From assembly GCA_046597055.1 (NCBI GenBank), contig JBKJLC010000094.1:1-62707 (forward strand): a stretch of DNA of 62,707 nt, written 5' to 3'. Source of the DNA: Kofleriaceae bacterium. GTDB lineage: Bacteria > Myxococcota_A > Polyangia > Haliangiales > Haliangiaceae. Each line of letters opens with the position of its first letter. Within the stretch, counting starts at the first letter, position 1. Positions 58,093-62,707 of the stretch are shown here, piece by piece. The position numbers and the translations under genes are program-made. Below the pieces are notes generated by a model that did no database searches, was not told where the DNA came from, and saw only the letters and a program-made list of their open reading frames with translations.

Positions 58093-58383
58093 CGGCGGTT
58101 CCTTACCATCGACGCGGGCGTTTTCCCCAGCCGGAATCGCGACAACTGAACCGTCCACCGGTCCGGCGCCGGCCGGCCTCGGTCGCCGCGCAAGCCAGGC
58201 CTCGTTCGCGCGCCGGCGTGCCAGCGGCTGCCAGGATTCGCCGGCTCGCTCGCCGCGACGACTCCGCACGAACCCGGGTTGCCGACGCCGCACGAGCGGG
58301 AGCCGGGTCGACCGGGGCTGACCAGCGCGTCATCTTCCACGACGTGCGTCGGTGTGACAGTGGCAAGCGCGTCGAGCCGATGC

Positions 58384-58500
58384 TTATGTCAACTGTCCGC
58401 GAAGGTCGCGAACCCGCAGTGGTTTAAGGCCGACCGCGCATCGAACTGGTTCGGCCAATCGCGGCGGTCAGGGTCGCTGGATCGCGGTCTTCGCGCGTTG
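58384..58500 (+). repeat. Dispersed repeat copy A starting at a XerD-arm-like 11-mer
   Basis: TTATGTCAACTGTCCGCGAAGGTCGCGA...CGCGCATCGAACTGGTTCGGCCAATCGCGG; aligns with 61301-61414. Confidence 0.8.
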
Positions 58501-58745
58501 AGGTCGCCGATGATCGTGAACGGACTGCCGCCCGGCGCCGACGATTCCTCCGCGAGCTCGTACTTGCGCGCCTTCTTGATCACGTCGTCGCGGCCCTTCC
58601 CACTCCAGGTACTGCTGCTGGAACTGCTTGAGCCAGCTGGTGAGGCGGGTCGACGCGTTGGCCAGCATGATGCTCGCGCGGTCGTCGAAGTCGATGCCCG
58701 ATGCGAACGACGCCCACAGCTGGCGGTCCTGGTCGGCCGGGGAAC
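58468..58745 (-). pseudogene. Frameshifted fragment of an unknown protein
   Basis: DQDRQLWASFASGIDFDDRASIMLANASTRLTSWLKQFQQQYLEWEG / DVIKKARKYEL in adjacent frames. Confidence 0.35.
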
Positions 58746-58754
58746 GGCGCGACG

Positions 58755-58940
58755 GCCGTCACCGCGGTGGCGACCGTGTTCTGCTACTACCAGGGCTTCA
58801 TCGCCTCGAAGACGAGCACCGAGAGCGCGAACACGACGATGACCGGCCGCCAGAAGGCCAAGAAGCGCGGCGCCAACGTGGCCGTGTACCCGACCGTCGA
58901 TCTGCCCCAGATCGGCGCCGGCATGCGCATCGTGTTCTGA
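58755..58940 (+). pseudogene. Orphan C-terminal fragment of a myxobacterial-type secreted protein
   Basis: TM end, YYQGF, and terminal VYPTV...GAGMRIVF beta-strand; no start codon. Confidence 0.4.
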
Positions 58941-58946
58941 ACCACC

Positions 58947-59411
58947 TCAGCGCGGTAACGTGCCACGGGCCTCGAGTGCAGCGCTCAGCTGGAGCCACTG
59001 GGGGTAGCCGGCGAGCCACTTCGGGCGGGCGCGCGCCGCCTCGAAGGACCAGGCGGCGCGCTCATCCCAGCAGGCGATCACGACAGGGCGGTCGCCGAGT
59101 CGGACCTCGAGGGCGGGCAGCGTGCACGAGACGCTCTTGCTGCGGACAACGAGCCGACGCGCCCCGGCCCGCACCGCCGGCCAGGGCACGCGGACGTGCT
59201 CGGCACCTCGGTAGTCGGCGAGCGCGACCCCGTCTGTGCTCACGCGGAGCTCGAGTGACGGCGAGCGCGGGGTCAGGCCGAGCATGACCGTCCAGGTGAG
59301 CCCGGCGACGGCGATCGCGAGCATCCCCGCGACCATCCAGGCCTGGCGGTGCGGCTCGCGCAGCAGCCGGTCGCCGGCGCCGGTCGCGCCGAGCAGGATC
59401 GCGGCGGTCAC
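58947..59411 (-). CDS. Hypothetical membrane protein (possibly truncated)
   Basis: TM helix followed by a PH-like LRVSTDGV...VPWPAV pattern. Confidence 0.5.
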   Translation of the reverse strand: MTAAILLGATGAGDRLLREPHRQAWMVAGMLAIAVAGLTWTVMLGLTPRSPSLELRVSTDGVALADYRGAEHVRVPWPAVRAGARRLVVRSKSVSCTLPALEVRLGDRPVVIACWDERAAWSFEAARARPKWLAGYPQWLQLSAALEARGTLPR

Positions 59412-59613
59412 ACGACGAACAGCCGGGCGCTGACGAGGCCGCCCGGGGGGTCCACAACTGGCTTGGCGTAGCGCCGACAGGCGATCCAGGTCTCCGTCGA
59501 GGCGTCGCCGACCTCGAGCGGGCCCAGGATCATCCGGTCGCGCAGGCCGTGGCCATGCAGGCCGAGCCCGCAGCCCACTGGCTGGCTGGCCGCGTCGCAC
59601 CGCGGACACCGCC

Positions 59614-59725
59614 GCCTAACAATTCGTTCAAGCCGGCCCTACTTTGCTACACCGGCAACATGGCAGGTTTAGCTTGCCATGTTGCCGGCTCCGCTACGCA
59701 GGTCGGCTTAACTCAGGCGTTAGGC
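59614..59725 (+). mobile_element. Integron attC site 1 (112 bp)
   Basis: R'' GCCTAAC, AATTCGTTCAAGCCG ... CGGCTTAACTCAGGC, R' GTTAGGC; central palindrome CCGGCAACATGGCA/TGCCATGTTGCCGG. Confidence 0.92.
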
Positions 59726-59730
59726 CGCAT

Positions 59731-60111
59731 ATGAAGATGACACCAGTGCCTAGAGTAATTGTCAGGATCATCGGCCTTCTCTTCGCGTTAGAAGGGTTCA
59801 TCGGTCTGATCGCTCCGGAAGTATTCCGCGCACTAGTCGTCTGGCTTCAATCGCCGCCCAGCTGGCCTGGCTCAGTGGCCCTACGAGCTCTCATCGGTAT
59901 CCTGCTTTTAGGCCTGGCGTCTCCCGCCAAATCAGTTGCTGCAGTGAGGGCCATCGGGCTGCTCACACTCTTGGGTGCAGTGGTTGGCTTAGTCTTCACC
60001 AACTTGGGTGAGGCACCACATGGCTCGATCTGGCGGCTACCTTCCTTGGCTTTGCTTGCGGCGGGGCTTGTCGTTGTATGGGGCGCTGGCAAAGCTCGGG
60101 CCGCGGCCTAA
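59731..60111 (+). CDS. Integron gene-cassette ORF: 126-aa four-TM membrane protein
   Basis: ATG 6 nt after attC1; its TAA lies inside the attC2 R'' box; visibly lower GC than the host. Confidence 0.85.
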   Translation: MKMTPVPRVIVRIIGLLFALEGFIGLIAPEVFRALVVWLQSPPSWPGSVALRALIGILLLGLASPAKSVAAVRAIGLLTLLGAVVGLVFTNLGEAPHGSIWRLPSLALLAAGLVVVWGAGKARAAA

Positions 60112-60165
60112 CAATTCATTCAAGCCGATGCCGCTTCGCGGCACGGCTCAATTCAGGCGTTATGC
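60106..60165 (+). mobile_element. Integron attC site 2 (60 bp)
   Basis: GCCTAACAATTCATTCAAGCCGATGCCGCTTCGCGGCACGGCTCAATTCAGGCGTTATGC. Confidence 0.92.
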
Positions 60166-60506
60166 GCGGTCAAGGGCGAAATGTCGGCGAGGCAGAGTTC
60201 GTGCTTCGTACTTTGGGGGAGGGCGAAACTCAGCGGTCGATCAGGATTCGCCGGATGAACCCAACCGCGGCCGTGTCGCGAACGGAGGCCGCTTCCGTCC
60301 GGCTGCCGGACGATACTGTTCGTGATGGGAGCGACGATCTGGCGTCGGTAAGTGTTGGCATGAAATCACCTGGTGCGCCTCACGGACGCCTGTGGGGGAG
60401 ACTGCCCCGTGAACCGATAGCGTTGTCGTCGCGCGGTTTCGTAACCAACGCGACGAACGCCGATTCCCGTTGATGATTCGGTGCGCGCGTTCACACTTCG
60501 GAGACG

Positions 60507-60953
60507 GTGCCACAGAGCGAGCATGTACTTGGTAGCCGCAGGTCGGCCGTGCGCGAGCCAGCGTCGCGGAGACGGTGGGCGGTGCTTCTCGGTCTCGCCG
60601 CCGTTTACATCGTGGCCGGGAAGCTCGGGGTTCATTTAACTCTCGTGCACCCGAGCGCGACGGCAGTGTCGCCGCCTACGGGCATCGCGTTGGCGGCGTT
60701 CCTCATGCTCGGCCGGCGCGTCTGGCCGGCGGTGCTGGTCGGCGGGTTCGTGGTGAATTTCACGACCGCGGGCAACGCGTTCCCGTCTCTCGGCATCGCC
60801 GCGGGCAACACGCTCGAGGGGTTGATCGGGTCGTACCTCCTCGACCGATACGCCGCAGGACCTCGATCGCTCGAGCATCCGCGTGTTAGGGAGCGGGCCC
60901 GACGACGGGAACAAGGACAGGACGGAGCACGCTGCGTGATGGCGGTGGCCTGA
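60507..60953 (+). pseudogene. Truncated MASE1 sensor domain
   Basis: YIVAGKLG...PPTGIALAA...WPAV.VG...IAAGNTLE, which degenerates after about 60880. Confidence 0.75.
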
Positions 60954-61270
60954 GACGCCATCACGCGGGAAAGTTGGCCCTGGTTCGGATGGTCGAGGAC
61001 GATGGCGCCGCGTTCGCAAGGGCTGGGCAGGTCGCCCGCCGAAATAGGTGACGCCGAAGGTGCTGGAACACCGACGGCGTCGTGTCCCCGATTGCCCCGT
61101 GCGTGACGGCAACCAAGAACCCCTATCTCATCGTCCACCGCAGCGATTGACTCTCAATACTCTTCTTGGGCGCCGGATGGCGGTGACCATCGCTCCCGCC
61201 CGGACAGCTTGCGCTGGCGCGGACGATGTTTACCAAGCGACATGGCTATTTGTAATGATTACAAGTGGCT

Positions 61271-61414
61271 ACGTCGCATAATCGTGTTACGTAATCGTAT
61301 TCATGTCAACTGTATGCCAAGGTCGCGACCGGGCAGCTTCGAGGCGGTTCGCGCATCGATCTGGTTCGGCCAATCGCGGTGCCGCGACGTCTGCGATCGA
61401 GTCCTCCGATCTTG
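61271..61414 (+). repeat. Dispersed repeat copy B with a dif-like site at its 5' end
   Basis: ACGTCGCATAA-TCGTGTTACGTAA-TCGTAT-TCATGTCAACT followed by sequence homologous to copy A. Confidence 0.75.
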
Positions 61415-61624
61415 GGCGGCGCGCTCGGGCGCGTGGTGTACCGGCGAGTGAGGAACCGGACGGTTTCGATCGCGGCTCGACGGCTCGCCGAGCGCCTTGA
61501 CGGTGCGCGATGGCCAACTAATCGAGGCCGAGCTCTACTTCGGATGGCACATTGCACACGGGCGCCGGCGCATCTATCGGCCGACGTGACTGACCTAATC
61601 GTGGACACTTAGGAGCGACTAAAA

Positions 61625-62299
61625 ATGAGCGATATGGCAATGGACAGACTTTTAAAGGCTCAGGGATCGCGCTGGCCGCTGATCTGCGGAATCGTCGCCG
61701 CGCCATTGTTTTGTGGCGTCGTCGCAATTCAGGCTTATGCGAGAGAAGGATTCCATCTCGCAATTCATCCGCTCAGCCTGTTGAGTCTTGGCGACTTGGG
61801 CTGGATTCAAACCGCCACTTTCATAGCAACTGGCCTTTTGATTATCGCCTGCGCCTTCGGGATGCGGCGGTTGTTGTCTCATCGCTGGGGCGGAACGTGG
61901 GCGCCGCTGCTGGTTGCGCTCTATGGCCTGGGTCTCTTCGCGGCCGGCGTATTCCCCGCCGATCCGGGATTGGGCTTTCCGCCGGGGGCGGTGCAAGCCG
62001 ATGCCACGAGCTGGCACGCCACACTCCACGGCGCTGCGTTTTTCCTGGCTCACCTTTCGGTCATTCTCGCCTGCTTCGTCTTCGCGCGCCGTTTCCTTGC
62101 GCACGGGGACAAAGGCTGGGCGGCCTACAGCGTCGCAACCGGCATCGGCACGCCTGCCCTGATTGTTGCCGGGTTTTCAAACCCCGCCGTCATTGGCGCA
62201 TCGTTCTTTCTGACGGGAGTTGTCGCCATGGGATGGCTGGCGCTGGTCGCGGCTCGAATGCTCGCCCAGCGAACAGCCGGCAATTCGTCGCAAGGATAA
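61625..62299 (+). CDS. DUF998-family membrane protein
   Basis: AGGAG RBS; REGF...HPLSLLSLGDLGWIQ, AGVFPADP..GFP, HATLH. Confidence 0.85.
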   Translation: MSDMAMDRLLKAQGSRWPLICGIVAAPLFCGVVAIQAYAREGFHLAIHPLSLLSLGDLGWIQTATFIATGLLIIACAFGMRRLLSHRWGGTWAPLLVALYGLGLFAAGVFPADPGLGFPPGAVQADATSWHATLHGAAFFLAHLSVILACFVFARRFLAHGDKGWAAYSVATGIGTPALIVAGFSNPAVIGASFFLTGVVAMGWLALVAARMLAQRTAGNSSQG

Positions 62300-62707
62300 G
62301 CCCCCTGCATCGGACAGGCGAAAGCGCTTCACCTTTCGGCGCATAGAGGATGTCGTGACCCGAGAGAACAACTTGTCGATCTCGATTTCGCCTTCACGCC
62401 CGCAACCGACCTGCTGAAACAGCGTCGGGTTCGTCTTCCGATAAATCAAGATGTACCGACTGCTGTCGCTGGCTCGAGGCTGGCTAGAGACCTTGCAAGA
62501 GCTGCCGCAGCTGCCGCAGGTCTATCGTCGTCTGAGCGAAAGCGCGCTTGTCTACGCGGCCCCGAGCGTCGGTTGCGAAGGCATCATCGAACGTAACCGT
62601 TCACGCGGCGACAGCGGACCGCTGGTCAGTTCGCAGATGCGCGGGTAGCAGCGATGGCGCCGGAGTGCCATGAAGCGCAGCCGCACAGGCGTCCTTCAGG
62701 AACCCGT

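Follow-up and report, generated by a model that had tools for sequence, protein, structure and literature searches.

In the parts of the literature available to us, nearly all descriptions of dif modules come from Acinetobacter, where XerC/XerD recombination sites of the plasmid dif (pdif) type carry host-type arms away from the chromosomal dif site and lie beside accessory genes and insertion sequences (IS) (PMC13141974, PMC10132070, PMC9455709, PMC12907356). The same partly available literature, which lacked most subscription journals, mentions dif-like sites in myxobacteria as the chromosomal dif only, and no extra Xer sites in myxobacteria were found in it. Here we describe two diverged direct repeats, A and B, each opening with a XerD arm, near the end of a 62,707-nucleotide stretch of DNA (the window) from a Kofleriaceae bacterium. 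This window makes up contig C119 of an assembly of 8.38 Mb in 303 contigs (GC content ~72%, completeness 94%, contamination 7.6%). The arms are of family type, their position is ectopic, the insert that holds them is strain-specific, and its cargo is shredded. We put at about even the chance that A and B are decayed copies of a secondary, non-chromosomal, pdif-like XerC/XerD site with a ~70-bp flank on its D side, imported with foreign DNA. This explanation draws on the family-consensus D arm, the rare C arm of B, the location of dif on contig C32, the empty sites of relatives, and the extra Xer sites that relatives carry.

The earlier note on this DNA had claimed direct repeats of about 110 bp that begin at dif-like 11-mers. 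Two diverged homologous copies are indeed present, and the 11-mers open them at 58384 and 61301, where the similarity begins; the length, on the other hand, comes to 79–81 bp. BLAST (word size 7) aligned 58386–58464 with 61303–61379 at 81% identity over 79 columns (E ~1e-13), and from the 11-mers on the alignment has 65 identities, 14 mismatches, and one 2-bp gap; homology past 79–81 bp was not significant downstream (P = 0.20–0.31) or upstream (P = 0.05–0.34) under three scoring schemes. The two copies are the only ones in the assembly and stand in direct orientation with 2.8 kb between them. That the repeat is an IS end starting with TGT, a small RNA (as had been suggested for the downstream ~100 bp), or the end of a protein-coding gene is highly improbable and largely refuted. 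Relatives (L235, L092) do have IS-like ends that begin with the same 8 bases and contain internal repeats, and A can be read as an open frame on its minus strand; however, neither copy has an inverted partner or a transposase beside it, Rfam returned 0 matches, the folds are weak (covariation was weakly tested, on two sequences only), and no codon-periodic coding family was seen, as the copies differ by a 2-bp gap and the overlapping frame has no Pfam or library match and 0 relatives among 1.84 billion proteins.

Xer arms were scored on a 50-site family profile, with the D-arm consensus taken from 36–50 relatives' sites; two sites in the profile come from G100 and G105, genomes that are unpublished; both are tallied as well, and no claim hangs on them alone. 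As in dif modules, the D arms of both copies and the C arm of B match the consensus of the host family (scores in Table 1). The XerD arm occurs in the genome in 2 exact and 4 one-mismatch copies, A and B being two of these six. When the AT-rich DNA around B was shuffled with its dinucleotides kept, an arm scoring as well as the C arm of B came up in 1 of 20000 shuffles, and a C arm lies within 30 bp of only three of the 54 D-like arms with at most two mismatches, namely those of dif, B, and one weak site. Upstream of A, the gapped likeness to a C arm and spacer is borderline (P = 0.05–0.09). The 7-bp direct repeat in the centre of B points to an ordinary site that underwent a short duplication, and the 8-bp palindrome in the same centre is readable as a third arm (3.0 bits as a C arm). 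Neither A nor B would be expected to recombine today in the way of an ordinary double-stranded site.

Three smaller observations concern these copies. The XerD arm of A can pair with sequence just upstream in a bulged hairpin (58351–58397) that is not significant (z −0.6, 135-nt fold). A reading of the 3' end of the repeat as a direct C arm was unsupported (−4.7 bits). The AT-rich segment C261:37955–37985, upstream of a gene of the poly(A) polymerase family, shares the 8-bp palindrome of B's centre and neighbouring bases and is perhaps an operator.

A full family dif site was found by pattern search in 125 of 137 family genomes (reversed control, 0), and its genus consensus is ACGTCGCAGAA TCGATC TTATGTCAACT. 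The genome's own full site lies on the minus strand of C32 (1070–1097) and scores 53.7 bits, whereas the next best reaches 18; as complete 11-6-11 sites, A scores −16 bits and B 8.4 bits. The C32 site stands between the same genes as dif in all seven genus genomes examined (both sides in six), and the dif neighbourhood maps to C32, C251, C46, and C39, never to C119. Thus, A and B are ectopic, and they are not scars of insertion at dif; neither is a complete 11-6-11 site, single and syntenic at the terminus, as a chromosomal dif would be. The dif-profile scan that had been proposed returned family-type D arms in both copies and the full dif elsewhere. GC skew and counts of FtsK-orienting polar sequences (KOPS) on short contigs were uninformative. 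By reading the sequences we assigned a xerD candidate (C125:20746) and a xerC candidate (C193:72922). Similar arms are reported for the dif sites of Myxococcus and Anaeromyxobacter in the available part of the source (PMC2731167). The first 16 bases of A and B match the flank of the genome's own dif at 11 of 16 positions, which is the best match among 37 sites (4 of 3000 random); over 70 bases there is no likeness (1655 of 3000 random). Next to this dif, on its XerC side, C32:1098–4650 is a 3.5-kb strain-specific insert with orphan genes, and the contig end, C32:1–280, holds a repeated element in which we read a likely fragment of a group II intron reverse transcriptase.

The surroundings of A and B were compared with those in relatives. 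Genes at 24.8–51.5 kb of the window are syntenic in four of five genus genomes tested, and in all four syntenic genomes the homologue of C139:1250 comes directly after that block. In G003 and G004 this homologue directly follows the reductase gene that ends at 53.4 kb; at that point the G001 contig ends, and the G008 and G012 stretches show other DNA. The end of C119 and the start of C139 share one IS66. The synteny of relatives with empty sites thus delimits a strain-specific insert of ~12 kb, from 53.4 kb to C139:1250, and the search for empty alleles yielded them for the whole of it. The claim that host-like content ends right at A is borne out by composition, with a GC content of 72–78% before A and of 48–79%, mostly 55–70%, after it, but synteny already ends at 53.4 kb. 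The low-GC part of the insert runs from A to ~C139:990, and 61140–62560 has no homologue in the 137 family genomes.

These boundaries bear on a weakened form of the account in the earlier note, one Xer insertion at a secondary chromosomal site, with A as attL (D arm, host C side) and either B or a C arm at C139:860 as attR. It would fit A, which has a D arm without a C arm, and it would fit C139:860, where a lone C arm (15.3 bits, the same 11-mer as in an extra site of G137) stands without a D arm ~130 bp before host-like DNA resumes. However, chance alone would give 0.22 such C arms in an insert with this length and GC content, the spacers mismatch, and two diverged copies of the 70-bp flank are left unexplained. 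The insert relative to G003 also starts 5 kb left of A, and dif is elsewhere; we consider a single insertion quite unlikely. The proposal that A and B are scars of Xer-mediated insertion survives only in part: the XerD arm, the XerC arm of B, and the xerC and xerD candidates agree with it, whereas the dif on C32 and the left edge of the insert do not. On C139, a 10-bp inverted repeat with ~105 bp between its arms (L316:859–981) lies at the right edge of the low-GC insert, its first arm overlapping the lone XerC-like arm.

DNA of the window is also present in soil sequencing runs (Logan). Among the pieces listed, Logan contigs span copy A in three of four runs (X1, X2, and X3) and copy B in one of the four (X1), and the bridging pieces have flank-like depth with no differences listed. 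The four runs belong to one study, and the source sample is possibly among them. Because the listed pieces break at both IS pieces between A and B, the order of 59.5–61.1 kb rests on this assembly.

Intact extra sites are found in relatives. At least two full sites occur in 15 of 137 family genomes, compared with 0 in the control; in G159 and G032 two near-identical sites at contig ends are probably one locus, and the extra sites of G023 are counted among the 15 but were not read. The genome G028 has eight extra sites with the spacer GCGCGG, unlike the spacer of its dif, which is on L270. They lie on plasmid-like contigs next to genes for ParA, a CHC2 primase with DUF3987, a ParE-antitoxin, and an integrase, and two of them (C482) are inverted around 10 kb with their C arms inward, an arrangement that matches a C-type dif module as defined in the available parts of two papers (PMC13141974, PMC10132070). 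We regard the G028 sites as a candidate dif-module system in a myxobacterium. Of the 21 pairs of these sites that were compared, 18 share neither side, and the pair L265/L269 is nearly identical on either side; L266 shares with L265 and L269 only the 70-bp D-side flank (scores 68–76, against 29–33 on the C side; the A–B score is 91). This is the same pattern as in A and B, in unrelated sequences. The locus in our window is most likely a relic in one strain and matters little alone; the family-wide lead is worth more, because intact extra sites, those of G028 above all, would make Xer-driven shuffling testable, and the sites of G028 and other relatives are better targets than A and B.

Other extra sites in the family show arrangements of their own. 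Flanks of 30–40 bp are shared on both sides by L253, L255, L257, L259, L261, L274, L276, and L277 (genomes G087, G107, G096, G091, G143, and G102); sites of this type adjoin contractile-injection, immunity, toxin-antitoxin, and Schlafen genes, and the shared flanks are possibly accessory sequences of one mobile element family. G137 has double sites 65 bp apart in direct orientation, twice (L248:611–703 and L249:10035–10127), G079 has three tandem dif-like repeats (L229:1409–1585), and G017 has two extra sites beside MmeI and ArdC genes (L278, L279).

Judged by the features compared, A and B appear to resemble a pdif-type site and yet to stand apart from both dif modules and integrative mobile elements exploiting Xer recombination (IMEX). 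They share with the Acinetobacter modules host-type arms that do not lie at dif and that neighbour accessory genes and IS, and with CD fusion modules, as the available parts describe them, two sites in direct orientation (PMC13141974, PMC10132070). Unlike in those modules, neither A nor B is a complete 11-6-11 site, and an inverted pair of complete sites (or a direct CD pair) is missing, as A is without a C arm and B has a 19-bp centre; the cargo consists of fragments, the copies share a 70-bp D-side flank, and the host is a myxobacterium. The same module was not found in other contexts in the 137 family genomes and further searches, and with neither site complete A and B do not make up a classical dif module. 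As for IMEX, the locus is not at the chromosomal dif, C119 continues into C139, and the frames scanned hold no replication or transfer genes of its own and no integrase. One degenerate arm or a non-matching spacer at the ends is also known from VGJphi, TLCphi, the gonococcal genetic island (GGI), and EludIMEX-1, but according to the available parts of the sources these are at dif or have a good XerC arm and a 6- to 7-bp centre (PMC4246890, PMC5357621), whereas A and B keep the D arm and are not at dif.

Another likeness is that to the CTXphi attP, which is described, in the available parts, as having an over-long centre and an inverted second site with D arms inward (PMC4246890, PMC5357621); attP1 has a 12-bp centre and the inverted attP2 lies 90 bp away (PMC4246890). 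B would then be a CTX-type junction, a long-centre site with an inverted site 51 bp further on, folding in single-stranded DNA, and A a more decayed junction of a tandem array. The inverted C arm of B is in register with the best inverted D score, a joint score reached by 6 of 3000 shuffles, and the homology of A and B ends (61379) at the border between the spacer and the XerC arm of the inverted site (44 of 20000 shuffles for any arm there). None of 47 canonical sites and none of 19 extra sites reaches 8 bits at this place, so that an inverted C arm is not general among extra sites. True hairpins of an inverted XerD arm exist at dif in G019 (L241:1490–1585) and G032 (L243:1428–1530), where that arm follows 34–39 bp after dif (z −13.3 and −3.4); these are CTX-attP-like scars at dif with ordinary genes around. 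On the other hand, the test was picked after the sequence was seen, C-like arms of 8–14 bits are common (eight others in the 10.6 kb scanned), and no significance attaches to the folding of B (z −1.3 and −0.9). The centre of 19 bp and the loop of 51 bp differ from the 12 and 90 of CTXphi, the inverted D arm is nearly unrecognisable, A has neither C arm, the cargo is without a phage or rolling-circle gene, and the locus is not at dif. A CTX-type origin seems to us rather unlikely. Also unlikely is a version in which the family carries out dif-module-like shuffling with its own XerCD, and B, as a compound site of three arms and an inverted site, moved a cassette segment far from dif as folded single-stranded DNA.

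If A and B are instead decayed pdif-like copies, a host-type XerCD pair would have joined segments of the donor element at such sites, and Xer crossovers would have left a head-to-tail pair of related segments that both start with a XerD arm and its flank. Later IS insertions, deletions, capture of an attC cassette, and drift would have broken both cargo and sites; A would have lost its XerC arm, and the spacer of B would have grown by 13 bp, probably by a short duplication.

Several results weigh against this history. The lone D arm is not enriched in the 137 family genomes (16 matches, against 27 in the control); since lone D arms occur at the chance rate, A carries weight only because it is homologous to B. 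No recurrence was seen for the layout of C arm, long centre, and D arm, which matched 5 times in 4 of 400 other class genomes and 5 times in the control. The A/B flank is unrelated to the flank of any relative's site, and no third copy of it turned up in the genomes and collections searched. The insert frames scanned include no replication, phage, transfer, or integrase gene, the palindrome just upstream of B has no explained role, and on the minus strand the XerD arm contains a perfect -35 hexamer, TTGACA. The last point belongs to a non-Xer explanation, in which 80 bp of a promoter or operator region were duplicated or picked up as a fragment in a fragment-rich insert. Downstream of the hexamer lies a 15-bp palindrome, the cargo is made of 80- to 450-bp fragments, and the rates of lone D arms and of the B layout suit this explanation as well. 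However, a promoter scan gave 0 sites, A is without a -10-like hexamer, the homology begins at the arm, and a family-specific C arm beside B is very unlikely by chance; we hold such a regulatory origin to be improbable. A Fur/Zur-type box has a 7-1-7 structure. The palindrome was considered as a metal-regulator box of this kind and rejected, as its other near matches are not at metal-uptake genes by Pfam.

The search for a third copy covered 60 relatives and 137 family, 146 order, and 400 phylum genomes (overlapping sets) by BLAST, plasmids and phages by BLAST, and viral, metagenome, and GTDB collections by exact scans; copies that are only distantly related would be missed by BLAST or exact match. 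Exact 18-mer matches at 46 metagenome and 38 GTDB loci were dismissed as chance, their upstream scores not exceeding 28 where A and B score 60, as were the four loci from the viral scans (0, 0, and 4) and two short matches of B each in plasmids and phages. Six short matches came from the order- and phylum-wide searches (E 4e-5 to 1e-3), and the three that were read (G132, G101, and G023) are GC-rich and coding-like; tblastx against the genome itself gave low-complexity noise only. One of the 400 genomes, G517, has a marginal 36-bp match to the start of A (L319:1501–1536, E 5.5e-5) with a XerD-like arm (9 of 11 positions), intergenic and 348 kb from its dif. In run X4, one 159-bp contig at depth 11.8 is identical to the flank of B (61316–61474), with neighbouring DNA barely covered; this weak sign may mean that the piece occurs in other contexts in the X4 community.

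The cargo had been described as containing integron cassettes. Two attC sites with R'' and R' boxes and a bottom-strand hairpin are present, as in integrons and CALINs, but only one complete cassette, and the remainder consists of gene and IS fragments (Table 1). No integron integrase was detected, with 0 of 10 matches over the TIGR02249 cut-off in this 94%-complete, 303-contig assembly. A cluster of attC sites without an integron integrase is termed CALIN; the locus is like one in its two attC sites and one cassette, and unlike one in lying between Xer-like repeats and being cut by IS pieces. There is no sign that the attC and Xer systems act together at the locus.

Table 1. Features of the A/B locus (window positions) and extra Xer sites of G028
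Feature	Position	Strand	Details
Expected XerC arm and spacer of A	58367–58383	+	No arm ungapped (−21 bits)
Repeat copy A	58384–58464	+	XerD arm 58384–58394, exact family consensus, 26.2 bits; 70-bp D-side flank
Protein-like frameshifted fragment	58465–58744	-	No detectable relatives
3' end of myxobacterial gene, ~195 bp	58745–58940	+	Relatives ~450 aa (G065, G030); 69–71% DNA identity
Fragment of another myxobacterial gene	58950–59400	-	39% over 124 aa to a G023 frame
Internal piece of multicopy IS-like element	59468–59613	-	Ends one base before attC R'' box
attC site 1	59614–59725	+	Bottom-strand fold z −5.96; its own cassette gene missing
Cassette gene, 126-aa hydrophobic protein	59731–60111	+	No Pfam family; 7 relatives, 124–133 aa, 68–87% identity
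attC site 2	60106–60165	+	Bottom-strand fold z −3.74; 89% to attC on C165
MASE1 sensor-domain gene fragment	60507–60874	+	PF05231 positions 2–106 of 299; cut by IS piece
Left-end piece of same IS-like element	60875–61142	+	Copies on C227, C267, C139, C57
Imperfect palindrome	61237–61277		41 bp, perfect 15-bp core 61250–61264; overlaps outer end of B's XerC arm
XerC arm of B, family type	61271–61281	+	20.5 bits; 11-mer unique in genome
Centre of B	61282–61300	+	19 bp instead of 6; 7-bp direct repeat 13 bp apart and 8-bp palindrome
Repeat copy B	61301–61379	+	XerD arm 61301–61311, one change, 18.7 bits; 68-bp D-side flank
Possible inverted degenerate second Xer site	61363–61390	-	C 8.7 bits, D −13 bits
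Low-GC DUF998 membrane-protein gene	61625–62299	+	Cargo of same insert
End of IS66 copy	62592–62707	-	Links C119 to C139; target duplication 7/8
G028 extra sites L252, L265–L269, L271	Contigs C529, C299, C393, C482, C503, C578, C27

Protein searches with the fragment at 58465–58760, which included the 1.84 billion proteins, found nothing. The IS pieces at 59468 and 60875 are mutually inverted compared with intact copies, and the C227 copy of this IS-like element has an rve_3 integrase-core frame. Two more solitary attC-like sites lie near contig ends (C165:421–477 and C19:17116–17157). At the other end of the window, positions 1 to ~3300 carry CheD, HDOD, and hybrid kinase genes at a GC content of 0.59–0.63, unlike the remaining contig, and may be foreign DNA or a chimeric contig start.

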